DNA of 64,000 nt from an uncultured Pirellulales bacterium (GCA_964482555.1 CAYZXY010000010.1:2135-66134); one strand, 5' to 3'; shown: positions 6,535 to 64,000, counted from the first letter of the stretch. Numbers and translations: made by a program. Notes: generated by a model from the sequence alone, not told the origin.

Positions 6535-9500
6535 TCAGATATTTTCCAGGACGATAAAGTTATCGGAACTGTTAAGTCTGGAATTAATCGAATCCGCGGC
6601 GTAGAGGCCGAATTCCGGATATTCGCTGCCGGTGGCGGCTATGGATTTGCCGGCGAATAAGCCGATGGAGCCGCTGCCTGAGGAGTTCGTCTGACCGCTG
6701 GGCAGTGAGCTGTAAAGTTCCGCGAGTACATAATCGGTCACGGCACCGGCGGTTACATAGGAATTATTAAACTTGTTGCCGAATATGAACTTGCCTATGT
6801 TGCCTGTGCTGAGGCTGTCATCCTGCTGGTTCAGATCGTAACGGTTTGACAGATCGGTATTCGTGCCGATATCGTAGCCGGCCAGGAACAGCGAATCGAC
6901 AACCTCGGTCCGGGCCTTCACCAGGTTCAGGTTGTCGGCGATGCTCAAGATAGCGTTATCGAAGGTATCGGCGCTGATGGACAGCAGGTTATCGGCCCGC
7001 ACCACGCCGTCAAAGACGCCGGTTTTCGCGGCGATGCTCAGGATCTCGTCTTCGGCGATGATGGTTCCCGATATGTTTTTCAGAGCGGAGATGCTTCTGA
7101 TGCTGCCGGCGGCGGCGGTTTCTTCGTTGAGGGCATTGTCGCCGGCGATGATGAAGTTGTGGGCGATGCCGCCTCGCTGGCTGGCAACGACGCCGATATC
7201 GGCGGCAGCCCGGATGTTTCCCGTGATGTCTTCACGGGCCACGACTTGCAGGATCGAGCCATTGCCGTCGATGCCGGTGGCGGTGAGGTGAGCGCCCAGG
7301 TCTTCCCTGAGGTTCACTTTGTGGATTTCACCGGCGACGACCTGGCCGCTGGCGTAGGAACTGGCTTGGAGGAATCCGAGTTGACCGGCGATATTAATAC
7401 TGACGTTTTCGCCGATATGGTCTGCCTTGATCATGGCAGGTTTGGCGGAGGGGAACTGGACATTGACGGCGGCGTTATTGTCCAGGTCGTCCACAATCAA
7501 CGAGCTCAAAGAGCCGTTGACGTCAATCTGTCTGGTAATGGATACCTGAGGAGCGAAGATGGTGCCCAGCGAGGCTGATGCGAGGGAAGGGGCCTCCTGG
7601 GCGGGGACTATGGTTGGAGGGTATGCCAGATCGGATGTTTTAATCGTTGCGATTTCGGTAGTCCCGCCCCGTACGGCAATGCGCAGCTGAGAGCGATCGG
7701 TGGTGCCGGACAATACCAGCGTGTCAATATTCGCGGCATCTCTTTTTCCGCCTTCAAGGAAAAAGACAAAGCTGCCTTCCGTCAGCGAGATGGTCACCAG
7801 GTCGCCATTGGCATCGACAAAGGTGCTGCGGTTCGTAAACGGAATGCTGCTGCCGCGGCCGATCGCCTGCAGTTCGACCGTCGATTCATCGAGGTCGTTG
7901 GTGGTCAGGTTAAAGGTCGTCTGGGCCAGAGTGTTCAGGGCGATGCTGTCGTCGGGCTGAAACAGCACATTTACAATAACGTTTTCGCCGGGTTCGATGA
8001 CTAACGGCGTCGTCAGATCGATATCCAGAGCGAACACCTCATTGGAACTGGTCCAGTTGGAGATAACCAGGTTCGTTTCCAGGGAATCATTGGAAATCGT
8101 CAGCGGCAGGCTGGCAACCTGGTCTTTGATCACCGTGCCGAAATCGAAGGAGGTTTCGGAAAGATCAATCTCAGGGCTGACGACCTTGCCGGCCAGATTA
8201 ATTTTGTAGGCTTCGAACAGGCTGCCGGTAATTTGCAGCGGCGCTTCATAGTTGCCAGCGGGCACATTGTCGCCCACAAAGGCCACAAAGACGTCCATCG
8301 GCATGCCCGGCTCCAGCACGGTATCGAGGACCAGATTGCCCGCGGCGTCAGGAAGGACTTCAAAGCCGTCGGGCGATTGCAGTTTGCCGTCTCTGTCCAG
8401 TGAGTAAAGGTCTGCGCCCAAAAGCACGAAGCCATTGTCCGGAGCGAGGATTGTGTTCAGATAGGTTTCCACTTTGTCGGCCTGAATGCGGAACCAGTCC
8501 GAAGCGGTGGCCGAGGATGATTGAGCGTCAATACTGACGGTATCCAGCTGCAAAACATCGTTGTTGCCGATGGCGTTCAGATTCGAATTGATGACGTTAA
8601 TCTGCGGAGCGGTTCCGATGCCGCGGACCTGAACCGATTCCTGAACGACATTGCCGGGCTCATCATCATCGATCAAACGGATTTGAATGGCGTCCTGATA
8701 GGATATTGTCAGGGGCTGATCGGATACAGGATTGAAGCTGACGATCAGGTCCAGGGCTTCGCCGGCGGCAACAACGATGTTTTGCAGCGGTTCGTCAGAA
8801 CCGGCAAGGGCAAGATCAAATGCGGAGGCGTCGCCTTTCACCAGGTCGATCCAGTCGATGGAGGCCGGTCCGGTGCCGGTATTTTTCAGCGTGAGGATGC
8901 GTTCCGTCGTCGAATTGAAGGGCCGGTGGCCGTATTGCAGCTGGCCGTCATTGACGCCGTCGTAATAGACGTCGTTGTCGTTTTCGCTGATGGTCAGCTC
9001 AGGCAACAGGCCGGTCGCCATGACATCAATGGTCGTTGTGTATTGCTGTTTATTGCCGAACTTATCGGTGCTTTGGATAACCAGCGTATCGACCGCGGTG
9101 CCGGCCTGGCTCGGATTGAAGTAAATGTTAAGCGTCTGGGATGCCGTATCGGATGTGGCTGAACCCAGCAGGAAGGGGAACGTCGGGGCCATATCCGGAT
9201 CGTCCGGCGAGAGGGACATCTGGAAATCGGAATGGGGATTGACGAAAAAGATGTTATTGATCTGGAGGCTGATATCGCCGATGTTGTTGAGCGTGAAGCT
9301 GGTCTGGGAATAGGTATCTACCGGCGTAGCAGGCACGACAAGTTTCTTATCCACATCAATGTCGAATTGCAGGTCCGCGCCGGTGATGACACCTTCGATA
9401 TCGATGACATCCGTTTCTTCCACCAGGGTTTCATTGCCCTGGTCGTCGATCGTATAAATCTGGTCGATGGTCAGCGTGTCGGTCAGCGTGTAAGGATTGT

Positions 9501-12500
9501 CGTTGTCGGGATTGGTTTCAGTTGGCAGGAACTGCACCCAGATATTCCGCACCGTGCCCGGCTCGATGAACAGATCGCCGCCTTCGCGTCCATAAGGCAG
9601 CTCTTCGAAAATTATCTCTTCGCCCGTTTGCGGTTCATTGGTCGGGTCGTCAAAGACGCGAACAGCAAAATTATCGCTGATGTTCAGGGTCCAGTCTTCC
9701 ACCCGGACTAATTCGTCACTGCGGTTGAAGATGCTTACCCGTTCCAGCGGATAGCTCCGGTCAACGGCGGATTTGCCGAAGGCCAGTTTTTTGTTTAGCG
9801 TCTCTTCGACGGAAAAGCCGGTGGAATCATAAATGATAATCGGTGACGTGTCGATGGATATCGGTCCGCTTAAAATGGCATTATTCGTGGTTTCCGTGTC
9901 AGCTTCCGTTTCCGCGATCGTGTCAGCCTGGTCGATGACGGCAATGAGATAGTAATCGCCTGCAGGAAAGATTTCGCTGATTGACGGAATCTCCACGGTA
10001 GATTGGGTATCGAAATAGATGGCATTTGTCGGATCCGCGAAGAAGAATCCCGGAATAAAATCGTTCATGGCACCCGGCAGGTCAGCCAGCGTCTGAGCCG
10101 ATGCCGGATCGGTAATATTCAGCAGGGTATCGGGGACGTAGGATTCGGGGTCATCTTCCGGGACAATGTCCGGGTCGTCAAAGATGGTATCGGCGCTGAG
10201 ATAATATTTGATATCCGTGCTTTCCAGAATACGGCCTACACCCAGATTGGTATATGTCGTTGTCACATCCAGCTCTTTGCCGGCCTGTACGAACAACGGG
10301 GGGATATCCGTTAACGGGCCCAGATCGGGATTGGCCAGCGTCGGAAAAGATAAATCCATAACGGCCAGGTCGCCGAGCAGCCCCGTGCCGTCGAGGGTGA
10401 CCGGCTCGGTGGCGCCGTTGGTAATGTCGAAGCGGGCTTCTTCGGTATTTTCCGCCCTGTCAGGATGGAAAACGACGGGGATTTCGACTGCGGTATGATC
10501 CGGCAGATTATTCAGATTGCCCAGCGAGCGCAGGGACACATCGACATTGACCGGTAAAAGCTCGTCCGTCAGAATAAACGGCTCGAAGGTTTGGGGGTTA
10601 AACGCATATTCCGCCCGTTCCGTCGCCAGGGTCAACGTATAGGTCCCTTCTTCCATCAAGACCGTTTTGAAGGTTTCCGTTTCGCCGACCTGGGTATAAG
10701 GCTTATCCAGTATCTTGATGCCATCGGCATTGAAGACACTAATGAACAGGTTGTCCTCGGCCAGCACGTCGAATTCGATGATCTCGCCGGCCGTGCTGCC
10801 GCCTTCGGGAGCGACAATTTCGATCACGCCGATGTCCTGTTCCATCTGCTGGCGTATGAAATTCTTGCGCATCAGGGCATCCGAATAAACGGCGGTTTCG
10901 TCCTGGGCCGGAATCGTCATTTCGGTTACCGCGAAATCGCCGGTCTGTTCCGCCCTGTTCACCAGCATCTGATAGACGGGGGGTTCGGGTTCAGATGAAA
11001 GGAAAGAAAAATCAACCGATATATAATACCGGCCTGTATAAGTTGCTATGAAGGAATCGATATATTCCCGACCTTCGCTGCTTAATAAATCCGCTCCGCC
11101 GGCCACCGGTTGTCCATATTCATTGTATATTTCGAAGTCTTCGATATAGACATATTCCGTGTTGTAGGAGATCAGTTCGATGCGGTCACCCGCTGCGGCG
11201 TCGAAATAATACCAGAAAGAGGGCGTCGGGTCATAAGGCATCGGGATGTTATATTCGGTCGGGGCCATGACGCGGAAAGGTTTTTCTTTAGAGAAAGAAC
11301 CTACCGCGATTTCTTCAGCGTTTTCCATCGTGAAATCGACGACCGGCGCCGTCGTGATATCGTTCAGCAGCGAGAACTTACCGCCCATTTCCTCCGTGAA
11401 ACTGACGCCGTTGAGGTTGAGAGGGCCGCCGGTGTTATTGATGAAGTAAAGATACTCCGGAGATGAATTGACGCCCACCGGGCTTTCAAAAGCGATCTGG
11501 CGGTCGAATGAATCTTCCCAGGAATCCAGAACCAGGATCGTACTGCCGACATAAGCTATCTGGTTGGATGTCTGCACGTTATTGGATGCGTCGTCTTCGT
11601 TGACGCTTTTATGGGAATTGACTACGGCGGTCAGATGATAGTCGCCATCGGGGATGCCGGTCGGATTCAGGGTTTCGGTGAAGGAGAAAGTCTCATCGAT
11701 TTCGAAGGGACCTTCATAAAGGAATTCACCCAGCCACAAATCGCCCTCGTTCAGCGGCAGGCCGTCGTCGTCGATGCCGTTCCAGATCATGTCGGGATTC
11801 TGGGTCAGATAATACGAGACATACATATTGTCATACACTTTCAGCGGTCCGTTGTTGGTGAAACTGCCGCTGACTTCAATTTCATCGCCGCTGAAGAAGA
11901 GGCTGGGAGAATTTACTTCATGCCCCGGGTTCAGCGGATTGACATAATTCAGGATTTCCAGCGAGTCCAGCGACAGGTCCGTGGGGTCTCCCGGAGCGCT
12001 GGCTCCGAACAATTCCACACCGTCGGTGGTGGTGTTGCCGGCATCCTCGCCGCTGATATTAAAGACCAGTTCCGCCGTAAGCTCGTCGGCGTTGATTTTC
12101 GGTGTAAAGAAGACTTCGATATCGGCGGTTTCACCTGGATCGAGTACCAGAATGGAATCGGTTTTCACGACCTCAAGGTCAACCAGAGCAGCCCCGACAT
12201 AAACAGCGGCATCAGAGGTGATTTTGATGTAATAGTACCCATCATCCATTAGCATCATATCCAGCGCGGGGATATTGCCGTTTTCATCCAGGTTTTCAAT
12301 GTCTGCGAGCGAGCCGAACGATGTGCCGTACTGGTTATACACTTCAATATCGACCTGGGTATCGGGTACATCGCCCACCGAGAGGGGGTACGCGAACTGA
12401 TAGTCCCCGATGGTCTGGGGGTCGCCGTCATCGGGTACGTTCAGGTCGTCTATGACAAGAATGATATGATAATCGCCATTCTCAAAAGTTCCCGGAGCCG

Positions 12501-13410
12501 GCAGATCGACTTTCGTTTGCTCCACATGCGATTCTCCGGCTGGCAAGGCGGAGGCTGCGAATGAATTCAGCATGATATCGATTGGCGAGCCATCATCATT
12601 GGTTTGGAGAATCCCGTCTTCATCGACATCGAGCGAATCGTTTTCGCTGAAATAATATGTCACTGTGAAATCGGCGGGCGCTGGGCTGTTGTTAAAGATC
12701 GAAGACCCTAACAGTAAAGTATTCGCCCATTCGGGTTTCCCTGCTAATTGCAGCTCTTCCGGCAGTAAAAGGTCATCGTTATCGCTGGTATCCGGGGGTT
12801 CCAGCGGCGTCCTGGCTATTGCGGATAAATCCACGATATCGCCATAATGACCGTCAATTTTATACCATAGTTCCTTATTGGTTTCCGGTTCGGTCGTGAT
12901 GGTATTCAAGATGGAGTCCCCGACAATCGTGCCGTCGGCCAGTTCCGCCCGGTAGTCCAGTTCGACAATGTCTTGCGGGTTTAGTGGATCAAGAAAATCG
13001 TTCGGTCCTTCGTCCGGTAAAGGTCCGGGTAGAAAGAAAGTAAAACTATCCTTGTTATCGCCAATGATTTCGGGCGATGCGATGACCGTTCCTTCGCCGT
13101 TCCAGGTTATCGAAACCGTGTGGTGTGATAAAACCTCATTGAGATTCGGTTCATCCCCGGCATCAATCATTGCCAGGATATCTTCATAAGGAATAGTCGT
13201 GGCCGGGTAACCTGTTTTGACAGGATAAAGGGCAGGATCGTCCAATTCAAATGAGACATACTGGTCAGAAGGATCGTCCCAGGTGTCCAGTAAGTTGTAC
13301 CAGTCCGGATCGGTGGGCTGATTGAACACCAGGGGCATTGGACCGGCCAGCATCTCCTTGATATCCGCGGATAGTAATATACGATTCTCCAACGACTCTA
13401 AATGCAGCAT
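6535..13410 (-). CDS. Giant (2291 aa) highly acidic secreted/surface protein with repeated Ig-like/CARDB-like/ASH-like modules
   Basis: One uninterrupted ORF with N-terminus MLHLESLENRILLSADI (LExRxLLSA-type). It has recurrent CARDB-like strings (DGDYHLTAVVN...NEDDASNN, AGDYYLIAVIDQ...TTNN, NGDYHIILVIDD). ASH/choice-of-anchor-like modules are also present (FDFGTVIKDQVASLPLTISN...LVIEPGENVIVNVLFQPD). The composition is rich in D/E/T/N. Confidence 0.85.
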   Translation of the reverse strand: MLHLESLENRILLSADIKEMLAGPMPLVFNQPTDPDWYNLLDTWDDPSDQYVSFELDDPALYPVKTGYPATTIPYEDILAMIDAGDEPNLNEVLSHHTVSITWNGEGTVIASPEIIGDNKDSFTFFLPGPLPDEGPNDFLDPLNPQDIVELDYRAELADGTIVGDSILNTITTEPETNKELWYKIDGHYGDIVDLSAIARTPLEPPDTSDNDDLLLPEELQLAGKPEWANTLLLGSSIFNNSPAPADFTVTYYFSENDSLDVDEDGILQTNDDGSPIDIMLNSFAASALPAGESHVEQTKVDLPAPGTFENGDYHIILVIDDLNVPDDGDPQTIGDYQFAYPLSVGDVPDTQVDIEVYNQYGTSFGSLADIENLDENGNIPALDMMLMDDGYYYIKITSDAAVYVGAALVDLEVVKTDSILVLDPGETADIEVFFTPKINADELTAELVFNISGEDAGNTTTDGVELFGASAPGDPTDLSLDSLEILNYVNPLNPGHEVNSPSLFFSGDEIEVSGSFTNNGPLKVYDNMYVSYYLTQNPDMIWNGIDDDGLPLNEGDLWLGEFLYEGPFEIDETFSFTETLNPTGIPDGDYHLTAVVNSHKSVNEDDASNNVQTSNQIAYVGSTILVLDSWEDSFDRQIAFESPVGVNSSPEYLYFINNTGGPLNLNGVSFTEEMGGKFSLLNDITTAPVVDFTMENAEEIAVGSFSKEKPFRVMAPTEYNIPMPYDPTPSFWYYFDAAAGDRIELISYNTEYVYIEDFEIYNEYGQPVAGGADLLSSEGREYIDSFIATYTGRYYISVDFSFLSSEPEPPVYQMLVNRAEQTGDFAVTEMTIPAQDETAVYSDALMRKNFIRQQMEQDIGVIEIVAPEGGSTAGEIIEFDVLAEDNLFISVFNADGIKILDKPYTQVGETETFKTVLMEEGTYTLTLATERAEYAFNPQTFEPFILTDELLPVNVDVSLRSLGNLNNLPDHTAVEIPVVFHPDRAENTEEARFDITNGATEPVTLDGTGLLGDLAVMDLSFPTLANPDLGPLTDIPPLFVQAGKELDVTTTYTNLGVGRILESTDIKYYLSADTIFDDPDIVPEDDPESYVPDTLLNITDPASAQTLADLPGAMNDFIPGFFFADPTNAIYFDTQSTVEIPSISEIFPAGDYYLIAVIDQADTIAETEADTETTNNAILSGPISIDTSPIIIYDSTGFSVEETLNKKLAFGKSAVDRSYPLERVSIFNRSDELVRVEDWTLNISDNFAVRVFDDPTNEPQTGEEIIFEELPYGREGGDLFIEPGTVRNIWVQFLPTETNPDNDNPYTLTDTLTIDQIYTIDDQGNETLVEETDVIDIEGVITGADLQFDIDVDKKLVVPATPVDTYSQTSFTLNNIGDISLQINNIFFVNPHSDFQMSLSPDDPDMAPTFPFLLGSATSDTASQTLNIYFNPSQAGTAVDTLVIQSTDKFGNKQQYTTTIDVMATGLLPELTISENDNDVYYDGVNDGQLQYGHRPFNSTTERILTLKNTGTGPASIDWIDLVKGDASAFDLALAGSDEPLQNIVVAAGEALDLIVSFNPVSDQPLTISYQDAIQIRLIDDDEPGNVVQESVQVRGIGTAPQINVINSNLNAIGNNDVLQLDTVSIDAQSSSATASDWFRIQADKVETYLNTILAPDNGFVLLGADLYSLDRDGKLQSPDGFEVLPDAAGNLVLDTVLEPGMPMDVFVAFVGDNVPAGNYEAPLQITGSLFEAYKINLAGKVVSPEIDLSETSFDFGTVIKDQVASLPLTISNDSLETNLVISNWTSSNEVFALDIDLTTPLVIEPGENVIVNVLFQPDDSIALNTLAQTTFNLTTNDLDESTVELQAIGRGSSIPFTNRSTFVDANGDLVTISLTEGSFVFFLEGGKRDAANIDTLVLSGTTDRSQLRIAVRGGTTEIATIKTSDLAYPPTIVPAQEAPSLASASLGTIFAPQVSITRQIDVNGSLSSLIVDDLDNNAAVNVQFPSAKPAMIKADHIGENVSINIAGQLGFLQASSYASGQVVAGEIHKVNLREDLGAHLTATGIDGNGSILQVVAREDITGNIRAAADIGVVASQRGGIAHNFIIAGDNALNEETAAAGSIRSISALKNISGTIIAEDEILSIAAKTGVFDGVVRADNLLSISADTFDNAILSIADNLNLVKARTEVVDSLFLAGYDIGTNTDLSNRYDLNQQDDSLSTGNIGKFIFGNKFNNSYVTAGAVTDYVLAELYSSLPSGQTNSSGSGSIGLFAGKSIAATGSEYPEFGLYAADSINSRLNSSDNFIVLENI

Positions 13411-16983: not shown

Positions 16984-17090
16984 CTCACCCCAAACCGGGT
17001 AGAAAGCTCCGGGCAGTGCCGGGTGTAAGCTTAATATTTGCAGATAGTTACGTTCCGAGAAAACGAGTAATTTCAATCGGAACAATTATA
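16984..17090 (+). repeat. R105 interspersed repeat, subtype A (5' end diverged)
   Basis: ...CCGGGTAGAAAGCTCCGGGCAGTGCCGGGTGTAAGCTTAATATTTGCAGATAGTTACGTTCCGAGAAAACGAGTAATTTCAATCGGAACAATTATA. Confidence 0.85.
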
Positions 17091-17206
17091 ATATACTCAG
17101 ATTTGGAGAAATGACGGTAGAATTGGATTTCAGTGAAATGAGATAAACCGTGATTTTTCAGGACAAATGACTATTTTTTTCAGGCTTCAGGAAGTGAGTT
17201 TGTCGC

Positions 17207-19658: not shown

Positions 19659-19762
19659 TATACTCAATCGGGTAGAAAGCTGCGGGCAGGGCCGGGGGCA
19701 TGCTTTTTATCCGCAAATAATTACGTTCCGAGAAAAGGGTATTTTCAATCGGAACGAGTATG
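19659..19762 (+). repeat. R105 interspersed repeat, subtype A
   Basis: TATACTCAATCGGGTAGAAAGCTGCGGGCAGGGCCGGGGGCATGCTTTTTATCCGCAAATAATTACGTTCCGAGAAAAGGGTATTTTCAATCGGAACGAGTATG. Confidence 0.9.
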
Positions 19763-19912
19763 AAGCTGAAAGGTGCAAGGATAACCGTCGTGTCCAGATG
19801 GGCATGTCTATAATACAAATGATATGTATATTGGCAAGTCGGAAGACCTTAAGCCTGTTAAGTGAATATAACGCTGTTAATTGGTCTTTGACTTTCTTTG
19901 CAGGAGACAAAG

Positions 19913-31165: not shown

Positions 31166-31460
31166 ATAGAAGTGAAACCACGAATTTCACAGGGGGCAAG
31201 GCGAGCGTTAAGTGGAATCGGGGTATAGGGTTCTGGTTTTCGGGTATAGTCCCAGATGAACCACCAAGACACGAGGGCTCTAAGATAATCAAGGTAATCA
31301 CGAAGATGTATGATTGATCGAGATTTAGCGGCAAAGGGCAGGAGGCACAAGAAATGTTTTTTTGGGGGGATAGAGATCCCTTTAAGTCTTGAGGGCCTAA
31401 AAAGACGAGAAAGGTTGAGGGGTATTTTGGGGAAAATCAGGAGATTTTTTTGGCAAAGGG

Positions 31461-31489
31461 TTGACAAGGGGAAATGAAATGGCTATATT
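31461..31489 (+). promoter_or_regulatory. Candidate sigma70 promoter (distal) in the fusA-rpsJ spacer
   Basis: TTGACA (31461-31466), a 17-nt spacer, then TATATT (31484-31489). Confidence 0.4.
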
Positions 31490-31706
31490 GGTCGAATCAA
31501 CTGGAAGCGAGCGGTTGTCACGGAAGCGGCCGCGTTAGTGTAAGTTGAATTCTTACCTAGACTTAGCTCATGGATGGGAGATGAGTTATCACTAATCATC
31601 GCTGATGCGAAGCCATTATTTGTTTTGGCTTTTCCGGTTGTTTATATTCATAAATTCCAGAAATAATTTTTCTGACAAAAAATTAATAAATAATTAAGAA
31701 AAATTG

Positions 31707-31735
31707 TTGACGCGGCTGGTGAAACAGGTATCATT
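31707..31735 (+). promoter_or_regulatory. Candidate sigma70 promoter (proximal) for the S10 operon
   Basis: TTGACG, a 17-nt spacer, then ATCATT, preceded by an A/T-rich UP-like tract (31660-31705). It lies about 110 nt upstream of rpsJ. Confidence 0.3.
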
Positions 31736-31848
31736 GCTGGTCTGTTTAATTTACGGCCCAAAAGCCGGTGGCAGATGGAACTTTCTGGGAGACAAGCTGT
31801 TACAGGTATTGTTGACCGGCCGGGAGCCCGGCCAAGAGGAGTCTTTTT

Positions 31849-32906: not shown

Positions 32907-33560
32907 ATGATAGAGTTGCCCGTTTATAATCGAGAAGGACAGGAAGTCGATCGCATGCAGATCGACGAGGCCCTGCTGGGTGAGAAGGTCCGGCATAGCC
33001 TGTTAAAGCAGGCGTTGGTGATGTACCATGCGAATCGTCGCGTGGGAACGGCCAGCACGAAGAGCCGGAGTCTGGTAGCCGGTTCGACCCGGAAGCTGTA
33101 TCGTCAGAAGGGTACGGGGCGGGCCCGGATGGGAGCCAACCGTACAGTGGTGCGTAAAGGCGGCGGCGTGGCATTTGCCAAGAAGGCCCGAGATTTTTCC
33201 CTGCGGATGCCGAAGAAGCAGCGTCGCATGGCGCGTAATTCGGCGATTCTGGCCAAGCTGCAAAGCAACGACGCCATCGTGATTGACAAGTTGGAGTTTG
33301 ACGCCCCCCGGACGAAGGATTTTGTCGGTATTCTGGACAACCTCAAGGTGGACAAGGGCCGCAGTTGCCTGGTGGCCATGGATGATTACAATGTCAATGC
33401 GATCAAATCGCTGCGGAATATACCGCGGGTAGATGCGATGGAAGTGGATCAGTTGAATGCCGGCGACATTTGCAACCGCCGGAAGATTCTGTTTACCTTG
33501 AATGCCTTGAACATATTCCTGGATTCCTGCAGGCAGAACAATGGCGAGACGCCGGAATGA
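32907..33560 (+). CDS. rplD: 50S ribosomal protein L4
   Basis: The L4 motif KGTGRARMGANRTVVRKGGGVAFA is present and gene order fits. Confidence 0.95.
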   Translation: MIELPVYNREGQEVDRMQIDEALLGEKVRHSLLKQALVMYHANRRVGTASTKSRSLVAGSTRKLYRQKGTGRARMGANRTVVRKGGGVAFAKKARDFSLRMPKKQRRMARNSAILAKLQSNDAIVIDKLEFDAPRTKDFVGILDNLKVDKGRSCLVAMDDYNVNAIKSLRNIPRVDAMEVDQLNAGDICNRRKILFTLNALNIFLDSCRQNNGETPE

Positions 33561-33647
33561 GAATTTCCGCCAGGGCCAAACGCGAGTGTTTTATCCGCAC
33601 TTAATTACGTTGGGGCCCAACGAAATAATTCAATCGTAACGAGTATA
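33557..33647 (+). repeat. R105 repeat, B-like, 5'-truncated; overlaps the rplD stop codon
   Basis: ATGAGAATTTCCGCCAGGGCCAAACGCGAG...TTATCCGCACTTAATTACGTTGGGGCCCAACGAAATAATTCAATCGTAACGAGTATA. The TATACCC...GGGTA head is missing. Confidence 0.75.
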
Positions 33648-33667
33648 GAAGACGAGAGGACCGAGCC

Positions 33668-35138: not shown

Positions 35139-35243
35139 TATACCCAAAGGGTATGAGAATTCCCGCCAGGGCCAGTCGTAAAGGCATTGCCCGCACATAG
35201 TCATGTTTTGACAAAACGGGAATTTTCAATTGGAACGAATATA
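35139..35243 (+). repeat. R105 interspersed repeat, subtype B
   Basis: TATACCCAAAGGGTATGAGAATTCCCGCCAGGGCCAGTCGTAAAGGCATTGCCCGCACATAGTCATGTTTTGACAAAACGGGAATTTTCAATTGGAACGAATATA. It starts 1 nt after the rpsS stop. Confidence 0.92.
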
Positions 35244-35283
35244 ATAAATGACAGTAAGCCTGGTGATAGATAGGTGAAAGCTT

Positions 35284-35853
35284 ATGTTAAGCGGTGAAAA
35301 ATTAAAGAAGTATCGCACGGACAGCGGGAAGACCGTAGAAGAGCTGGCAGAACATTTGTTGCCAGCGGGTTTGGAAGACGGGGAGCGTGACGTTCAGCTT
35401 AAGACGGCCGTTTCCAGCGTTAAAAACTGGGAACGCGGTCTTTACAAACCCCGGCCGACATCAAGAGAGTTGTCGCAGCTCGCACAAACACTGGGTGTCG
35501 AGCAATTGGATTTGCATGTATGGAAAGCCTCGCATAATCATTGTCCCATGGCGCCGCGGAAGGTGCGGCTGGTGGCAGATCTGATTCGCGGCCGGCATGT
35601 GCAGGATGCTCTGGATGTGTTGAAGTTTACGAATAAGCGGGCGGCCGTAATGGTGGACAAAGTGCTTCGCAGCGCGATTGCGAATGCGGATGAGAACGAA
35701 GCGAATATTGAACGGCTGTTTGTGTCGGAGTCGCGTGTGGATGAGGGCGGCGTTCGTCAGGGGACGCGTCGCTGGCGTCCGAAAGATCGCGGTCGGGCGG
35801 TGCCTTTCACCCGGTTGTCGAGTCATATACATGTCAGTGTGGATATGGAATAA
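35284..35853 (+). CDS. rplV: 50S ribosomal protein L22 with an in-frame ~75-aa N-terminal XRE-type HTH extension
   Basis: The C-terminal ~113 aa are canonical L22 ([41 protein letters not shown]...[22 protein letters not shown]). The N-terminal part reads [22 protein letters not shown]...[37 protein letters not shown] lies 7 nt upstream of the ATG at 35284. Confidence 0.85.
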   Translation: [189 protein letters not shown]

Positions 35854-37110: not shown

Positions 37111-37146
37111 CAGAGATCAGGACATAGTATAATACAAGAAGTAAGA

Positions 37147-37250
37147 TATACCAAAGGGTATGAGAATCCCCGCCAGGGCCAGTCGTAAAGGCTTTGCCCG
37201 CACATAATTGTGTTTGGATAAAGCGGGAATTTTCAATCGGAACGAGTATA
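37147..37250 (+). repeat. R105 interspersed repeat, subtype B
   Basis: TATACCAAAGGGTATGAGAATCCCCGCCAGGGCCAGTCGTAAAGGCTTTGCCCGCACATAATTGTGTTTGGATAAAGCGGGAATTTTCAATCGGAACGAGTATA. It ends 7 nt before the rpmC ATG. Confidence 0.92.
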
Positions 37251-37257
37251 AGGCGCC

Positions 37258-37479
37258 ATGAATATCAAAGAAATCAGAGAAATGAATCCAGATGAACTGC
37301 CTGAAGAGTTGGAACATCAACATCAAAAGCTGTTTGATTTAAGATCACAGGCTGTAACAGAGAAGCTGGAAGATCCGACGCAGCTTATCAAGATAAAGCG
37401 AACGATTGCCCGGATCAAAACGGTATTAAGGGAACGTGAACTGGCGGCGGAAGCCCAGACAGCAGCGGCAGAAAAGTAA
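37258..37479 (+). CDS. rpmC: 50S ribosomal protein L29
   Basis: IKEIREMNPDELPEELEHQHQKLFDLRSQ... is L29-like, and the position after rplP fits. Confidence 0.92.
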   Translation: MNIKEIREMNPDELPEELEHQHQKLFDLRSQAVTEKLEDPTQLIKIKRTIARIKTVLRERELAAEAQTAAAEK

Positions 37480-44858: not shown

Positions 44859-44963
44859 TATAGCCAATCGGGTAGAAAGCTCCTGGCAGGGCCGGGTGTA
44901 AGCTATTTATCCGTATATAACTATTATCCGACACAATGGATAATTTCAACCGGAGCGAGTATA
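44859..44963 (+). repeat. R105 interspersed repeat, subtype A
   Basis: TATAGCCAATCGGGTAGAAAGCTCCTGGCAGGGCCGGGTGTAAGCTATTTATCCGTATATAACTATTATCCGACACAATGGATAATTTCAACCGGAGCGAGTATA. Confidence 0.88.
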
Positions 44964-45009
44964 TATATGCAAACTAAAATTATTGAAAAAAAATATAAGA
45001 TATAATGTT

Positions 45010-45865: not shown

Positions 45866-45969
45866 TATACCCAAAGGGTTAAAAAGTTTCCGGCAGGGCC
45901 GGATGTAAGCATTATATTTGCAGATAATTACGTTCCTAAAAACGGGTAATTTGAATCGGAGCGAGACAA
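45866..45969 (+). repeat. R105 interspersed repeat, subtype A variant
   Basis: TATACCCAAAGGGTTAAAAAGTTTCCGGCAGGGCCGGATGTAAGCATTATATTTGCAGATAATTACGTTCCTAAAAACGGGTAATTTGAATCGGAGCGAGACAA. Confidence 0.88.
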
Positions 45970-46008
45970 TGAACCTGTAAACGGGATCAAAGAAACCAGG
46001 AAAATTAC

Positions 46009-52027: not shown

Positions 52028-52059
52028 GGATTCAGTTCAATTCCTTTCAGGCATCTTCA

Positions 52060-52161
52060 TATACTCGTTCCGATTGAAATTACCCGTTTTGTCCATACAT
52101 AATTCATTATACAAAAATACATATGTATGGCCCTGCCGGGCGGTTTTTTCCAGACAGGGTG
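52060..52161 (-). repeat. R105 interspersed repeat, subtype A (5' half diverged)
   Basis: The minus-strand reading is ...GAAAAAACCGCCCGGCAGGGCC...AATGAATTATGTATGGACAAAACGGGTAATTTCAATCGGAACGAGTATA. It ends 32 nt upstream of the kinase ATG. Confidence 0.8.
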
Positions 52162-52215
52162 CAGTCATTGCGAGGTTGGGAAGTCCTCATAGATTCCTAT
52201 CGCAACAAGCATAAC

Positions 52216-52593: not shown

Positions 52594-52700
52594 TATATAG
52601 ATAATCGGTTAAAAAGCTCCGGGCAGTGCCACGCCTAATCTATTTCAATTCATGTAATTATGGTTGGAGAAAACGGGCAAACTCAATCGGAAGCAGTATA
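52594..52700 (+). repeat. R105 interspersed repeat, subtype A variant (antisense to flanking genes)
   Basis: ...AATCGGTTAAAAAGCTCCGGGCAGTGCCACGCCTAATC...GTAATTATGGTTGGAGAAAACGGGCAAACTCAATCGGAAGCAGTATA. Confidence 0.82.
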
Positions 52701-52893
52701 ACAACAACTTGTGAACGTGCTGGCCGCTTTCGTGGGGAAATAAAAACACCCAACTTGCAAACACTGAATCAGAGAAAGTTTACCATCAGTCATGCTTTAT
52801 GCCCTTTGAGTTTAAAAGCTTATCCAGTTTATTCTATCGACATTTTTTCTGATAAACAAAACCTTTATTGCTGGCCTTTTAAAAACTTTTTGC

Positions 52894-52998
52894 TATGCGC
52901 AATTGGTTAGAAAGCTCCGGGCAGTGCCAGGCGTAAGCTTTTTAGACATAAATAATTACATTCCGGCAAAACGGGACATTTCCATCGGGACGCATATA
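52894..52998 (+). repeat. R105 interspersed repeat, subtype A (antisense to flanking genes)
   Basis: TATGCGCAATTGGTTAGAAAGCTCCGGGCAGTGCCAGGCGTAAGCTTTTTAGACATAAATAATTACATTCCGGCAAAACGGGACATTTCCATCGGGACGCATATA. Confidence 0.88.
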
Positions 52999-53141
52999 AC
53001 AAAAAATGCTGAAAACGCCTGGGCGCTGTATGCACAATCGTAAGCATTATAATCGGCAGTAGTGGAAAATATAATATATTTTTCGATTATGCGGGTTAGT
53101 TTTCATTTATATCAACAGAATGGTCGGCCCAGATATATGTG

Positions 53142-55406: not shown

Positions 55407-55428
55407 AATTGTCCCTTTCATAAAAGGC

Positions 55429-55532
55429 TATACTCGTTGGGATTAAAATGTCCGTTTTGTCGGAACGTAATTATTTGCGGATAAAAAGCTTACCCCCGGT
55501 CCTGACCGGAGCTTTCAACCCGCTTGGGCATA
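55429..55532 (-). repeat. R105 interspersed repeat, subtype A
   Basis: Minus-strand reading: TATGCCCAAGCGGGTTGAAAGCTCCGGTCAGGACCGGGGGTAAGCTTTTTATCCGCAAATAATTACGTTCCGACAAAACGGACATTTTAATCCCAACGAGTATA. Confidence 0.92.
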
Positions 55533-56181
55533 AAATAATCGCTTGCATGTATGTCACGTTATCGTCGCCAGGGGTGTTTTTCGCTATGTACTAACGTAAT
55601 TGTGTGTGAATAAAACAATTACGATTGGCATTGGCGGTAATGTTCAAACCCTTTGCGAATGTATGACGTGTTTGTTGTAATACAATTTTCCGATGATAGC
55701 AAGAAAAAAGCGGCATCTGTCTGGTCCAGGATTATTTTAGCGGGGCAAACGGCAACCCACATAAAAACCCTGGCACAAAGCTTAAGGGCACTCTAAACAT
55801 TCATTTTGGGCTGCAAGCGATTTTTTTTGCTTCTGTCCTTCGTCATGAAAAACCGTGAATATTTATCACTATGCCCGGTTTTCCATTTTTTGTCAGTCGA
55901 AAAAAAACTTCGCTTTCGCCGCAAAAGCAATTATTAGAGGCACCCTTAAAAGTTAATCGTAAAGAAATAAATTCGAATGCCCCAAAGTGCGATTTCGCAC
56001 TTTTAATTGTGATAACATTTCAGGAAAAGGCTTAACAGGGGCTTTTGACCCGCAACTCAAGATTTTTTGGTGTATGCGAGCAGTTATTCGAAAGGTATAA
56101 ATAATATCATCGGGCTTAAAAGGCCCTGCGGAACGCCAAAACGCTCACAAAAAATGCGAAACTTAAGCCAAAGTTGCTGTC

Positions 56182-56283
56182 AAAAAATTGCCAGGTGCGT
56201 TTCGGTGAGAAACAGACTGCTCGCTCGGCACTGAGATTGTACCGTGCACTGTCTCTTAGCCGCTACCTTCCGTGCACACCTGG
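56182..56283 (-). terminator. Long irregular hairpin plus U-tract, likely the terminator of the nrdR/ATP-cone operon
   Basis: On the minus strand CCAGGTGTG (56283-56275) pairs with CGCACCTGG (56199-56191). It encloses inner stems GAGACAG/CTGTTTCTC and CGGTAC/GTGCCG and is followed by CAATTTTTT (56190-56182). It begins about 110 nt after the stop at 56395. Confidence 0.5.
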
Positions 56284-56394
56284 CCGGCGGGCCTCCCTGC
56301 CCTATATACTTAAAACAAACCGGCATTTTTTGCGTAAGCTGCCGCCGAAATCATACCTCCATAAAGATAAGAAATAACAGCCGTGGCGAGGTTG

Positions 56395-57078
56395 TTATTG
56401 TATGACATTTTCCTTTCCGGCAGCAACTACGCATTTGTCATGTCCATGCAACTCCTCAGCCTGTTGAAATGACGGCGGCTCGGAGGGCATTTTGTTATAG
56501 GATTGCGTAATGGCCTTTTCAACTTTGAGTATGTGAAACAGTTCGTTTTCGATCATTTCCCTCACCAGTCCGCTGGTAATCTGATGGCAGTTTAATCGCA
56601 GGACTTTTTCTTCCACTTGACCGGCAATCATACGAGAGAGACCCCGGGAAAGGCCGCGTTCGTTTTCCAGATGCCAGACAATGGTGCTTTTGTTCCACGG
56701 TTCGGCGAAGTAGCTGTTCATCAGGACGTCTGCGGCGTTGTTTTTGTTATCATATGTTTCGTCATGGTAAAAGTGAACGATTTCCATGCGGTTACGCTGA
56801 GATTGTCTGATGATGCGATGTTCATGCAGAATCAGCGCGGCATTGAAAAAACCTGTTTCGCTCATGACCGCCTGAATGATCGAGTGAATCTGGTCGCTTT
56901 CAATGATAGAGCAGCCATAATTTTTTGAAATGTAGGATGATACAGCTTCCGCCAGGCTGTCAACGACACCGTCGGCATAAGAGCCGCTTTCGCTGAGAGA
57001 CTGTCCGATTGTGCCCATCACTTTAGTGTGGTAATACACTTCCGTAGTGCCGTCATTTTTTAATACTCGTAACTGCAT
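56395..57078 (-). CDS. ATP-cone domain protein (one clear N-terminal ATP-cone, possibly a second)
   Basis: MQLRVLKNDGTTEVYYHTKVMGTIGQSL...IESDQIHSIIQAVMSETGFFNAALILHEHR fits the ATP-cone pattern. A second similar segment (..IAGQVEEKVLRLNCHQITSGLVREMIENELF) follows. The gene starts 68 nt downstream of nrdR. Confidence 0.65.
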   Translation of the reverse strand: MQLRVLKNDGTTEVYYHTKVMGTIGQSLSESGSYADGVVDSLAEAVSSYISKNYGCSIIESDQIHSIIQAVMSETGFFNAALILHEHRIIRQSQRNRMEIVHFYHDETYDNKNNAADVLMNSYFAEPWNKSTIVWHLENERGLSRGLSRMIAGQVEEKVLRLNCHQITSGLVREMIENELFHILKVEKAITQSYNKMPSEPPSFQQAEELHGHDKCVVAAGKENVIQ

Positions 57079-57146: not shown

Positions 57147-57653
57147 TCAATCCTTTTGATTTTCCTCAAACAGAATTCGCTGTCCTTTGGCGTCTTCCAC
57201 TCGCTGCAGGATTTCCTGAATCTCTTCAATAAACTGGCCCACTTCCTGAAATTCATGATAAACGCTGGCAAAGCGAATATAAGCGACTTTGTCCAAGCTT
57301 CGCAGGTGGTTTACTGTCAGGGCGCCGATGGTTCGCGATTCGACTTCCTGGCCTGGTAACTGTAAGACCTCTTCTTCGATTTGCTCGGCCAGCCGGTTAA
57401 TCTGCTGCATGGATACAGGCCTCTTGTAGCAGGCTTTCTGAATCCCGGCGATGATTTTATCCCGCTCGTATGGGACCCGTGTGCCGTCTTTCTTGACAAC
57501 GGTAAGCTTGACCAACTGCTCAACCCGCTCGTAGGTTGTAAATCGACGGTCGCATTGCAGGCACAGCCGCCGTCGCCTGATGACTCTGCCGGCATCGCTG
57601 GAGCGGGAATCAATTACTTTGTCATTATCAGTTTTGCAGAAGGGACATCTCAC
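57147..57653 (-). CDS. nrdR: Transcriptional repressor NrdR
   Basis: MRCPFCKTDNDKVIDSRSSDAGRVIRRRRLCLQCDRRFTTYE zinc ribbon plus an ATP-cone (VVKKDGTRVPYERDKI...AYIRFASVY). Confidence 0.95.
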   Translation of the reverse strand: MRCPFCKTDNDKVIDSRSSDAGRVIRRRRLCLQCDRRFTTYERVEQLVKLTVVKKDGTRVPYERDKIIAGIQKACYKRPVSMQQINRLAEQIEEEVLQLPGQEVESRTIGALTVNHLRSLDKVAYIRFASVYHEFQEVGQFIEEIQEILQRVEDAKGQRILFEENQKD

Positions 57654-57976: not shown

Positions 57977-58134
57977 AAAAGATATGGTTCGAAAGGTAGA
58001 TATTGTAACCGGTTGTTATATATGAGTGTTTGTGTTCATATGCCCTGGTGATCTCGGCTTTTGAAAAATATTAGAGAACAGGGATGGCAAATCATGATTA
58101 TGGGGCTATAATTGTAAAGGTTTTTATGTAAATA

Positions 58135-58239
58135 TATACCCAAAGGGTATAAGAATTCCCGCCAGGGCCAGTCGTAAAGGCTTTTCCCGCACATATTTAC
58201 GTTTAGGAAAAATGGGAATTTTCTATCGGAACGAGTATA
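58135..58239 (+). repeat. R105 interspersed repeat, subtype B
   Basis: TATACCCAAAGGGTATAAGAATTCCCGCCAGGGCCAGTCGTAAAGGCTTTTCCCGCACATATTTACGTTTAGGAAAAATGGGAATTTTCTATCGGAACGAGTATA. Confidence 0.92.
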
Positions 58240-58322
58240 AAACGATGCAGCGTACACGAGTCTCTTATGAGTGAAATCTTGCGCGAAGTGGCAATTCCGG
58301 TTTATCCGGGTCAGGAGTTTTT

Positions 58323-59618: not shown

Positions 59619-59728
59619 TTTTGTCGGTGTGGGGGCAGAATGCCCTGGCGCAGCTGGAAGAGCCGTAATCAGAGAGTAAACGTGGCCGGGAGCCGATTGC
59701 GTCGTACTGGCATCCCATATCTGAAAAA

Positions 59729-59770
59729 CGATTGGAGAAAACGGGATAACTCAATCGGAAGCAGTGTATA
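59729..59770 (+). repeat. R105 3'-half fragment abutting the queD-like start codon
   Basis: CGATTGGAGAAAACGGGATAACTCAATCGGAAGCAGTGTATA closely matches the 3' half of the copy at 52594. The next three bases are the ATG at 59771. Confidence 0.7.
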
Positions 59771-60139
59771 ATGTATAGTATTATTGTTGAAATTGTGTTT
59801 CATGCCGACCATTATATTCGCATTCCGGGCGGCAAAGAGGAAAAAAGGCATGCTCATGACTGGACCTTTCGGTCCAAAGTCAGCGCCGAAGAACTTGATG
59901 AATATGGTCTGGTGATGGATTTTCATCTGCTCCGACGTCTGATGCAGGAGGTTTCCCGGCCGCTGGAAGCGGTGGAAACGATCAATGAATTAGCGGCGTT
60001 TGCGGGTTCGTATCCCACGGCGGAAACAATAGGACGGTATCTTTACCAGCAAATGAAAGCGGTTTTGCCCGGCCGGGTCAGGCTGCTGGAGGTCATGCTG
60101 GAGGAAGAGGCGGGATGTTACGCGGTTTACAGCGAATAA
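59771..60139 (+). CDS. 6-pyruvoyl-tetrahydropterin synthase / QueD-like protein
   Basis: FHADHYI...RHAHDWTFRSKVSAEELDEYGLVMDFHLLRRLMQEV...YPTAETIGRYLYQQM follows the PTPS-family pattern (His ligands, G.v.DF, PTaE). Confidence 0.65.
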   Translation: MYSIIVEIVFHADHYIRIPGGKEEKRHAHDWTFRSKVSAEELDEYGLVMDFHLLRRLMQEVSRPLEAVETINELAAFAGSYPTAETIGRYLYQQMKAVLPGRVRLLEVMLEEEAGCYAVYSE

Positions 60140-60368
60140 GTCGGGATTTGTGATGCGGGGACGACCTCGAGACATTTTTTGACGGTCTGGATATCGGTAA
60201 ATATTGTTATCAGCTTAATTTACCTGCGAATGCAGGCTTTTCTCCATATTGACGAAAGTTTTTTACCTTTATATAATGTAGTAAGCGGCATTTGTTTTGC
60301 CGTGCCAAGAGGCGCGCCATGTCATACAAAGGTTTTTGTCGGGCGTGCAAAACGTATAATAATTGAGA

Positions 60369-60473
60369 TATACTCGTTCCGATTGAAAATACCCGTTTTG
60401 CAGGAACGTAACTATTTTCGGACAAAGCCTTTACGGCTGGCCCTGGCGGGAATTCTCATACCCTTTGGGTATA
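60369..60473 (-). repeat. R105 interspersed repeat, chimeric (B-type 5' and centre, A-type loop segment)
   Basis: Minus-strand reading: TATACCCAAAGGGTATGAGAATTCCCGCCAGGGCCAGCCGTAAAGGCTTTGTCCGAAAATAGTTACGTTCCTGCAAAACGGGTATTTTCAATCGGAACGAGTATA. Confidence 0.92.
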
Positions 60474-60474
60474 A

Positions 60475-60579
60475 TATGCCCAACTGGGTTGAAAGCTCCG
60501 GTCAGGACCGGGGGTAAGCTTTTTATCCGCAAATAATTACGTTCCGACACAACGGAACATTTCAATTGGAACGAGTATA
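60475..60579 (+). repeat. R105 interspersed repeat, subtype A
   Basis: TATGCCCAACTGGGTTGAAAGCTCCGGTCAGGACCGGGGGTAAGCTTTTTATCCGCAAATAATTACGTTCCGACACAACGGAACATTTCAATTGGAACGAGTATA. Confidence 0.92.
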
Positions 60580-60595
60580 AAACAAGGTTATCGCC

Positions 60596-61078
60596 ATGCA
60601 ATGTCAACGATGTACCAAGCATGCAACGGTTCATTTAACCGAGATAGTTGAAGGTAAAAAGATTGAGCGGCATCTATGCGATGAGTGTGCTCAGAAAGAA
60701 GGCATTACCATAAAGACGCAAGTGCCCTTGAGCGAGTTGATTGACAATCTGGTATCGGCTCAACAGGAAACCAAAGAGCTGTCCGAGATGGTATGCCCGG
60801 AATGCGAAATGAGCTGGCAGGATTTCCGGAAGGGTGGATTGCTGGGATGTGCCCGGGATTATGAGGTGTTTGGGGAAGCGCTGGCAAAACTGATCGCTCG
60901 TACTCAGGATGGAGCTACGGAGCACGTCGGGCGTACGCCTCGCAAGAGGCCGGAACGAGTGGGCATGCAGCATAAACTGCTTCGCTTGCGTCAGGATCTG
61001 CATCGGGCGCTGGACGAAGAGGATTATGAAGCGGCCGCCCGCCTGCGGGATGAAATTCATAAGCACGAAACAAACTGA
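60596..61078 (+). CDS. mcsA: McsA-like protein (zinc fingers plus UVR motif), putative activator of protein arginine kinase
   Basis: CQRCTKHATVHLTE...HLCDECA, CPECEMSWQDFRKGGLLGC and a C-terminal UVR motif LRQDLHRALDEEDYEAAARLRDEI. It lies directly upstream of mcsB. Confidence 0.8.
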   Translation: MQCQRCTKHATVHLTEIVEGKKIERHLCDECAQKEGITIKTQVPLSELIDNLVSAQQETKELSEMVCPECEMSWQDFRKGGLLGCARDYEVFGEALAKLIARTQDGATEHVGRTPRKRPERVGMQHKLLRLRQDLHRALDEEDYEAAARLRDEIHKHETN

Positions 61079-61131
61079 CAGGCCGGCAAAGCAACTGAAA
61101 CGTGTGCTGCCTGTGTAGAATTTATTATATA

Positions 61132-61236
61132 TATTCTTAATTGGGTAGAAAGCTTCGGGCAGGACCGGGCGTAAGCTTTTTATCCGCATATAATTACGTT
61201 CTGACAGAATGGGACATTGCAATCGGAACGAATAAA
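61132..61236 (+). repeat. R105 interspersed repeat, subtype A (5' head diverged)
   Basis: TATTCTTAATTGGGTAGAAAGCTTCGGGCAGGACCGGGCGTAAGCTTTTTATCCGCATATAATTACGTTCTGACAGAATGGGACATTGCAATCGGAACGAATAAA. Confidence 0.88.
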
Positions 61237-61248
61237 CGTCTGGTGACA

Positions 61249-63632: not shown

Positions 63633-63971
63633 TAATGAATTCGAGAGGTTGACAAATAGATTTCTGGAAGGGCCGACCTTAATGAAAGAAAAAATGCGGG
63701 CGGTCGCTGTGGCTGTGCAATGCTGTATATCTAAGCCCGCAATCATTATCCTTAAACAAAAAGGGGAAAAGGGGCCTCAGGGTGGGTAACATGATGTCGA
63801 AGCGAGTTTTGAAACAGCCCATTTTCCCCCACAAGAGAGAAAACTCATTACAATATATATTACGGTATCTGGGCAGTTTATGTATATCAGATGTTATCTG
63901 AAAAGGCCTCGGCAAAAAGCGGATTTATTTTGACCTGCGATTAATGAGGCCGATAATATAGCGAGATTATG

Positions 63972-64000
63972 TATACCCAAACGGGTTGAAAGCTCCCGGC
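63972..64000 (+). repeat. R105 subtype A, truncated by the window edge
   Basis: TATACCCAAACGGGTTGAAAGCTCCCGGC is identical in pattern to the first 29 nt of the other A copies. Confidence 0.85.

Follow-up and report, generated by a model that had tools for sequence, protein, structure and literature searches.

R105, an ordinary interspersed intergenic repeat with a suggestive RNA-level signature in a planctomycete genome

The window analysed here, a 64-kb stretch (64,000 nucleotides) from an uncultured Pirellulales bacterium (GCA_964482555.1, CAYZXY010000010.1:2135-66134; positions are counted from its first letter), contains ribosomal-protein operons whose spacers hold copies of a dispersed ~105-nt repeat, R105. 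About 21 copies are present in the window, ~1 per 3 kb, and all of them are intergenic. One B-type copy (35139-35246, + strand; nhmmer E = 1.5e-27) occupies the rpsS-rplV spacer, beginning 1 nt past the rpsS stop codon (35137) and ending 38 nt 5′ of the rplV start codon (35284). A first-pass annotation had flagged in this copy a helix of eight pairs, here called H3, preserved across the family through G-U pairs on one strand only, and had read the pattern as selection on a transcript rather than on a DNA cruciform.

The sequences and coordinates quoted in that annotation are exact. In the flagged copy the 5′ arm of H3, TGTTTTGA (35204-35211, + strand), faces the 3′ arm, TTGGAACG (35230-35237, + strand), in 4 Watson-Crick and 4 G-U pairs, free of mismatches; in the family as a whole, conservation is much higher in the 3′ arm than in the 5′ arm. 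As had been claimed, copy 60475 has one G-U pair, copy 37146 has two G-U pairs and one mismatch, and copies 52596 and 59728 carry GGTTG and GATTG, respectively, upstream of CAATC. Two further elements are found on the + strand of the flagged copy: a 5′ hairpin, H1 (ATACCC-AAA-GGGTAT, 35140-35154), which is part of the minimum-energy fold, and an 11-bp long-range helix, whose 5′ strand GAGAATTCCCG (35155-35165) pairs with CGGGAATTTTC (35217-35227), inside the “loop” of H3.

R105 is a genuine repeat family, as had been proposed. A nhmmer profile built from 15 copies matches 17 copies or fragments on the + strand and 4 on the - strand of the window, with E values from 1e-31 to 1e-3, and the other copies are 60-88% identical to the 35139 copy in pairwise comparison. 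There are two main subfamilies, A (GGGTAGAAAGCTCCGGGCAGGGCCGGGCGTAAGCTTTTTATCCGCA) and B (GGGTATGAGAATTCCCGCCAGGGCCAGTCGTAAAGGCTTTGCCCGCA), with different central domains and a common 3′ module (ATAATTACGTTCCGACAAAACGGGnAATTTCAATCGGAACGAGTATAA). Copies 52596 and 59728 make up a small variant group, with a 5′ arm of GGTTGG or GATTGG that can pair with TCAATC in a shifted register. R105 is small (below ~300 bp), non-coding, multi-copy and intergenic, but its terminal inverted repeat spans just 5-7 nt (5′ TATAC(Y)C vs 3′ GTATA), below the typical 10 bp or more. The TATA or TA found at both ends of most copies might be a target-site duplication but, being constant, might as well be part of R105 itself or a strict TA target. 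The 5′ flanks of the copies share no common motif and no conserved tetra- or pentanucleotide, and no transposase gene is present among the genes of the window.

Searches for R105 elsewhere returned little. At gathering score, Rfam 15 covariance models found only three tRNAs in the window, and three R105 copies searched at E up to 10 gave nothing meaningful. Degenerate patterns of 50-55 bits, which match 14 and 10 copies of the window, found no R105 in JGI metagenomes and IMG/VR; BLAST against plasmids and phages gave no match; and an 18-base pattern, too short for the purpose, gave chance single matches in genome contigs of unrelated taxa, none of them with ATCGGAACGAG. No description of such a repeat was found in the literature on Sedimentisphaerales or Planctomycetes. 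A further B-type copy on another contig of the assembly (44 kb) is visible only as the translation of a spurious open reading frame (P0121). Look-ups of exact proteins led only to short Logan contigs of the same organism.

Named homologues of the L22 protein assign the window to Sedimentisphaerales (Phycisphaerae, Planctomycetota), and the gene content agrees. The S10/spc operon of three relatives is free of R105, and five ribosomal-operon spacers that hold R105 in the window are ~60-140 nt longer than their counterparts in these relatives: rplD-rplW (107 nt in the window, 26-31 nt in the relatives), rpsS-rplV (146 and 34-70 nt), rplP-rpmC (147 and 32-54 nt), map-infA (about 134 nt or more and 19-55 nt), and rpsM-rpsK (208 and 56-149 nt). 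The lack of R105 together with the shorter spacers shows the copies to be lineage-specific insertions of ~100 nt into otherwise compact operons, five of them inside ribosomal-protein operons. No exact empty site can be aligned because the relatives are distant, the L22 identity of the nearest being at most 68%.

The orientation of the copies is strongly biased. Of the copies in spacers between same-strand genes, 14 have the sense and 3 the antisense orientation (antisense: 52596, 52894 and 60366-60473), and three more lie in divergent spacers, each pointing at a gene. GC skew is positive over the entire window, which makes the + strand the leading strand, and 17 of the 21 copies are on it. The directions of transcription and replication are thus confounded for R105, since the whole + strand of the window is leading; within the block of - strand genes, three copies follow the genes and two follow the leading strand. 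Eleven of the 16 complete copies end within 45 nt 5′ of a start codon, yet 5′ of the ribosome-binding sequence of the host gene, which near downstream genes lies 3′ of R105; the distance to the start codon ranges from 1 to >130 nt. What the sites have in common is transcribed intergenic space, mostly in sense orientation, with no fixed position.

The location relative to promoters was also inspected. Copies 58135 and 63972 lie just 3′ of promoter-like sites, and the head-to-head pair 60366-60582 lies 3′ of a near-consensus promoter-like sequence at 60249-60277 (TTGACG-17-TATAAT). Such matches occur at or close to chance frequency (21 vs 18.5 expected and 39 vs 26.6 expected). No recurrent sigma-70-like -35/-10 pair was found within R105 by a scan that covered the sigma-70 consensus only, from which the promoters of the host may depart. 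The head-to-head pair precedes a McsA-like/McsB-like operon, and a transcript starting on the + strand from 60249-60277 would hold both copies as a partly complementary inverted repeat of ~100 nt.

The evidence for constraint on the stems comes from the kinds of substitution seen in them. Over 19 copies, the eight pairs of H3 comprise 102 Watson-Crick, 23 G-U, 3 A-C and 24 other mismatched cells. The G-U to A-C ratio of 23:3 compares with 78:66 for the equivalent changes in non-helix columns of the same copies (Fisher p = 0.0009). The G-U excess on the sense strand therefore stands, but the assertion that pairing is kept only on that strand goes too far, with 27 of 152 cells (18%) pairing on neither strand. 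Relative to the column consensus, C>T changes occur at a rate of 0.167 in the helix and 0.128 outside it, A>G at 0.148 and 0.071, G>A at 0.022 and 0.133, and T>C at 0.019 and 0.053; wobble-compatible transitions are thus at about background or above, and wobble-incompatible ones are depleted 3- to 6-fold (G>A ~6-fold). H1 is perfect in four copies of B type and lacks one pair in 37146; in its TACCC/GGGTA version, that of A type, it has the same bias (8 G-U vs 1 A-C cell; 6:1 as events). By parsimony on a neighbour-joining tree, H3 has undergone 12 changes from Watson-Crick to G-U, 3 to A-C and 14 to other mismatches (p = 0.035), and the combined events for H1 and H3 are 18:4 (binomial p = 0.004). 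In the three or four copies on the - strand, the sense strand of the copy itself likewise has G-U but lacks A-C, which argues against a simple mutation bias of the leading strand, and the changes in the two arms of H3 are not mirror images, which argues against a symmetric double-stranded DNA site or cruciform.

Together these patterns suggest weak purifying selection on sense-strand pairing in H1 and H3, most likely in the transcript. The account of R105 that we favour, tentatively and with considerable reserve, is of a lineage-specific, high-copy, non-autonomous repeat, derived from a mobile element, that rides on messenger RNAs, mostly in sense, with stems that may be under weak single-strand constraint, most likely in the transcript. 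The element has inserted into short spacers of transcription units, five of them within ribosomal-protein operons, and would for this reason travel on messenger RNAs mostly in one orientation. Its sense strand could form H1, a subfamily-specific central domain and the 3′ hairpin H3; C>U and A>G changes are tolerated in H1 and H3 and G>A and U>C are rare, as expected from weak purifying selection on pairing of the sense single strand. The data establish the family with its copies, their status as insertions, the biased orientation and the asymmetry of the transitions; that R105 is transcribed and selected at the RNA level is what we infer. Judging from ERIC, Correia and REP elements, the hairpins would affect processing or stability of the messenger RNA. 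An RNA-level constraint is plausible, if unproven, and a dedicated regulatory role is possible, if unsupported.

Several observations weigh against this account. To begin with, all statistics come from 18-20 copies in one 64-kb window of one genome. Covariation, set beforehand as a test of the helix, is not supported in the available copies: H3 is 84.0% paired vs 83.1% when the 3′ letters are shuffled, with 139 of 500 shuffles as high, and for the full A-type structure 107 of 500 shuffles are as high; double changes affect one or two pairs only. The H3 count shrinks to 12:3 when taken as events because of shared ancestry, and the combined 18:4 is borderline against the 53:39 of non-helix columns (Fisher p = 0.049). 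The signal comes mainly from four columns of the 5′ arm, which hold 17 of the 23 G-U-type changes, with about five variable columns overall; the 3′ arm is simply conserved, and conservation is higher in the loop AACGG (A77, A78, G80) than in the stem. H3 shows no depletion of pair-breaking transversions, and changes are about as frequent in the helix columns as in the remainder of R105.

The predicted folds raise further objections to the account above. RNAalifold, applied to all copies, predicts essentially nothing and does not recover H3; on A-type copies it prefers TCCG/CGGA. The pairing in the flagged copy had been described as preserved, which holds in that no mismatch is present, but the helix is not stable: H3 as drawn has +0.2 kcal/mol, and the isolated 34-nt segment has -1.1 kcal/mol (z = +1.35), with 189 of 200 shuffles at least as good. 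H3 reaches -6.8 kcal/mol or better in only 5 of 18 copies. The whole 35139 copy folds at -33.8 kcal/mol (z = -3.9), by way of H1 and the 11-bp long-range helix. The latter uses up the H3 “loop” (35155-35165/35217-35227), and the two helices therefore compete or would form a pseudoknot. The long-range helix is specific to B type, where it dominates the predicted fold and has some covariation at the subfamily level; for H3 and the long-range helix together, 21 of 500 shuffles are as high, within the stated false-positive range of the tool. The A and B subfamilies have different predicted folds. In favour of the account, whole-copy z-scores are -2.08 for the sense and -1.45 for the antisense strand, vs -0.45 and -0.37 for control windows. 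The energy gap between sense and antisense is smaller in R105 (3.0 kcal/mol) than in random + strand windows (4.8 kcal/mol). Raw sense-vs-antisense folding energy was rejected as evidence, as it reflects a generic, genome-wide G>C skew and not R105.

Many of the same observations would be expected if R105 were a selfish or neutral repeat resembling a miniature inverted-repeat transposable element, with pairing unconstrained after insertion. The G-U excess would then be a small-sample effect: by chance, the few variable columns would have C or A on the + strand, part of the changes would be inherited within subfamilies, and the conserved G and T would be held by some other constraint, for example on the ATAATTACGTT block or on the invariant loop AACGG. 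The missing covariation in H3 and in A type, the undepleted transversions, the concentration of changes in four 5′-arm columns next to a simply conserved 3′ arm, the loop that is more conserved than the stem, the borderline event test and the near-zero stability of the flagged H3 all fit this explanation. However, it does not account for the independent recurrence of the same bias in H1 and in the - strand copies, or for G>A being ~6-fold depleted in the helix when C>T is at or slightly above background, and the 14:3 orientation bias needs strand-specific selection or a strand-specific mechanism. We regard a neutral origin of the whole pattern as unlikely, though it deserves to be taken seriously.

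The transcript is not the only single strand in which such hairpins could form. G-T wobble pairs form in single-stranded DNA too, and it therefore does not follow from the asymmetry that the constraint is on RNA and not on DNA. On this point the earlier interpretation, selection on a transcript and not a cruciform, is only partly upheld: the asymmetry, the unmirrored arms and the 14:3 sense orientation speak for it, but the asymmetry fits single-stranded DNA equally well. The hairpins of R105 might serve mobilisation by a transposase of the HUH/Y1 type, as for IS200/IS605-derived elements or REPs mobilised by RAYT, with the orientation following the replication fork. The + strand is leading throughout and carries most copies, hairpins lie near both ends, the terminal inverted repeat is short, and there is no variable target-site duplication. 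The ends of IS200/IS605 elements share a hairpin recognised by one transposase, whereas H1 (ATACCC/GGGTAT) and H3 (CGTTCCGA/TCGGAACG) are unrelated in sequence. There is also no conserved tetra- or pentanucleotide 5′ of R105 and no transposase gene in the window, and of the four - strand copies, three belong to transcription units of that strand, which suits transcription better than replication. As the orientation of R105 tracks the genes, RNA is the likelier strand, and we consider a role of the hairpins in single-stranded DNA to be improbable. R105 has none of the features that define IS200/IS605 ends: its end hairpins are unrelated and its 5′ flanks share no target motif.

A more ambitious version of the favoured account gives R105 a function or an unusual mode of spread. 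It could be a mobile, sense-oriented structured RNA module that has entered a large share of the transcription units, the core ribosomal-protein operons among them, and is retained by selection as a binding or processing platform that serves a global post-transcriptional factor by way of the invariant loop motifs, H1 and H3, or one spread by a transcription-coupled or single-strand mechanism undescribed in Planctomycetota; we would not expect either to be the case. A related proposal is that R105 is a dedicated cis-acting RNA, a “portable leader” bound by a global RNA-binding protein or ribonuclease via the AACGG(G/A) loop of H3 and a GCAG central hairpin, and coordinating translation or decay. 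Consistent with such a leader, 11 of the 16 complete copies stand close upstream of a start codon and before the ribosome-binding sequence, the residues of the loops vary little or not at all, most copies are in sense orientation, and the 3′ module alone is kept at 59728. A CsrA-type GGA motif in the loop would be speculation. Nevertheless, the downstream genes are functionally unrelated, the distances to start codons vary widely, the 4845 copy is in a 3′ untranslated region, three copies are antisense, and close relatives do without R105. Moreover, whole-length similarity of 60-88% looks like recent amplification and not like an ancient regulon. A leader of this kind is improbable.

Very improbable is a role as double-stranded DNA, as a promoter cassette or as a palindromic site or cruciform for a DNA-binding protein, for although copies lie upstream of genes and point at them, one pair (60366-60582) is divergent and head-to-head, and the 3′ end is TATAA-like, no consistent sigma-70-like -35/-10 pair occurs within R105 (matches are near chance, and the scan used only the sigma-70 consensus, from which a planctomycete promoter may differ), arm changes are not mirror-symmetric, and copies occur within operons that relatives keep tightly packed. 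The same unmirrored arm changes led to the rejection of a palindromic operator, for LexA or another protein. Also rejected were an integron attC site (no RYYYAAC/GTTRRRY core sites) and a tRNA-like or SINE-like origin (ARAGORN found only three tRNAs in the window).

Judged by size, density, location and presumed co-transcription, R105 would be a repeat of the ERIC, Correia or RUP kind. ERIC/IRU elements (~127 bp) are intergenic, lie within transcription units and are co-transcribed, and their RNA hairpins can alter the fate of the messenger RNA through RNase E (PMC3184786). R105 shares with them the ~100-130 nt size class, the strictly intergenic location and a TA-type motif at both termini, TATA at both ends in R105. 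ERIC/IRU is, however, one long imperfect palindrome with terminal inverted repeats, whereas the three hairpins of R105 are local and an end-to-end dyad is absent; R105 also differs in its marked orientation bias, its two central domains, the lack of any sequence relation and the phylum (Enterobacteriaceae for ERIC, a planctomycete for R105). Correia/NEMIS elements of Neisseria (~104-157 bp) have known effects on transcript processing (PMC3184786). They and RUP of Streptococcus pneumoniae (107 bp) are, like R105, dense, non-autonomous, intergenic, of the same size and often near gene starts, and both are co-transcribed (PMC3184786), as R105 presumably is. Unlike R105, which has no long inverted repeat and no recognisable sigma-70 promoter, Correia elements carry 26-bp terminal inverted repeats, a TA duplication, an IHF site and functional promoters.

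Oriented repeats directly 5′ of open reading frames are known as Neisseria REP2 and Borrelia IR-type elements (PMC3184786). These carry a promoter, a ribosome-binding site as well as an ATG, whereas in R105 the ribosome-binding sequence is 3′ of the element and no promoter was detected inside. REP/REPIN elements with their RAYT transposases, and palindrome-associated elements derived from IS200/IS605, are intergenic, very numerous, form strand-specific hairpins that work in a single strand and are thought to act as RNA too (PMC3733652). REPs are GC-rich palindromes of 20-40 bp with a GTAG or CGTC head, and R105 is 105 nt long and AT-rich between the stems. Assignment of R105 to the REPs was rejected: GTAG is found only in A type (GGGTAGAAAGC), B type has GTAT, and the window lacks a RAYT/TnpA gene.

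Should the wobble bias extend to the whole genome, R105 would clearly exemplify dispersed bacterial repeats with stems policed on a single strand. Its sites include operons that are the most conserved of the cell, and post-transcriptional control in this phylum is almost unstudied.

The remaining copies (+ strand unless noted) are distributed as follows. A tandem pair 5′ of a pyruvate:ferredoxin oxidoreductase gene consists of an A-type copy (735-842) and a divergent B-type copy (1002-1110); in the latter H3 is broken, yet one of its pairs is compensated (C-G to G-C). The same gene has in its 3′ untranslated region an A-type copy with perfect H3 (4845-4952, H3 = -9.7 kcal/mol), between the stop codon (4820) and a terminator-like hairpin at ~4978-5026 (-29.5 kcal/mol, z = -5.8). 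Further A-type copies occupy the nusG-rplK (16986-17093), rplL-rpoB (19659-19765, perfect H3), map-infA (44859-44966) and rpsM-rpsK (45866-45972) spacers. A B-type copy upstream of rplW (33544-33650) overlaps the end of rplD with its 5′ end, and an unrelated small hairpin, GGCG-AGA-CGCC (33540-33552), takes the place of the usual 5′ hairpin there, by structural replacement or coincidence. Another B-type copy, in the rplP-rpmC spacer, ends 6 nt before the rpmC start codon (37147-37253, the copy called 37146 above).

In the - strand gene block, a copy without H1 (52057-52162, - strand) lies between genes for a STAS-domain protein and an anti-sigma kinase, both on the - strand, and is sense to both, while the shifted-register variant GGTTGG/TCAATC (52596-52703) and an A-type copy (52894-53001) are antisense to their - strand neighbours. 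An A-type copy (55427-55532, - strand) stops 6 nt short of the start codon of a - strand GFO/IDH/MocA oxidoreductase gene, in tandem with a - strand fragment that lacks the 3′ module (55559-55661, model columns 2-84; nhmmer E = 3.9e-12). The leader of an AsmA-like gene holds a B-type copy (58135-58242), with its promoter-like site (58084-58112) just 5′, and a fragment of the 3′ module only (59728-59771; nhmmer E = 4.7e-5) lies in the tRNA-Thr/queD spacer and abuts the queD start codon. The head-to-head pair is formed by a B-type copy on the - strand (60366-60473), antisense to its + strand neighbours, and an A-type copy with one H3 G-U pair (60475-60582) that ends 15 nt before the start codon of the McsA-like gene; a further A-type copy (61132-61239) lies between the McsA-like and McsB-like genes. 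The window ends within the first 29 nt of a last copy (63972-64000; nhmmer E = 7.6e-4), with a promoter-like site upstream (63930-63957).

R105 has two practical consequences for genome analysis. Its antisense frame is stop-free in many copies (...YSFRLKIPVLSERNYLRIKSL.P.LP.AFYPIGY), which leads to spurious open reading frames in annotation, such as those on the - strand at 37117-37326, 60431-60634 and 60674-61282; P0121, called on the other contig, is a 67-aa protein of this kind. R105 also fragments short-read assemblies of the organism (Logan, SRR7048221/22/24). The three Logan contigs with S19 break off in the 35139 copy, inside its first 27 nt, and L001, the contig with L22, begins inside the same copy. 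The divergent 33544 copy is assembled through in Logan contigs L038-L040.

Some other features of the window deserve mention. The L22 protein downstream of the flagged copy (35284-35853, + strand) has an N-terminal extension of ~75 residues, which gives scores typical of an XRE-type helix-turn-helix (HTH_3, 23.8 bits vs a cutoff of 23; HTH_19 and HTH_31 similar). The same extension is shared by L22 homologues of 180-190 aa that occur widely in Sedimentisphaerales and Phycisphaerae, and the fusion of a DNA- or RNA-binding domain to L22 is unusual. The fusA-rpsJ spacer (31166-31848, ~680 nt) is unusually long, without R105 and without a family-supported open reading frame, and Rfam finds nothing in it at gathering score. 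Relatives also have 400-680 nt upstream of rpsJ, and the spacer is a possible site for an S10 leader or for some other non-coding RNA. Between the tandem copies of the - strand block and an ATP-cone gene, a gap of ~730 nt (55662-56394) contains two short open reading frames only (54 and 67 aa). A 2291-aa protein encoded on the lagging strand (6535-13410, - strand) has weak matches to ASH/HYDIN/Cep192-type Ig-like domains and DUF1573, and is probably a giant surface protein. Two adjacent ATP-cone proteins are encoded on the - strand at 56395-57078 and 57147-57653; the second is a full NrdR, with zinc ribbon and ATP cone, and the first gives a weak match only.

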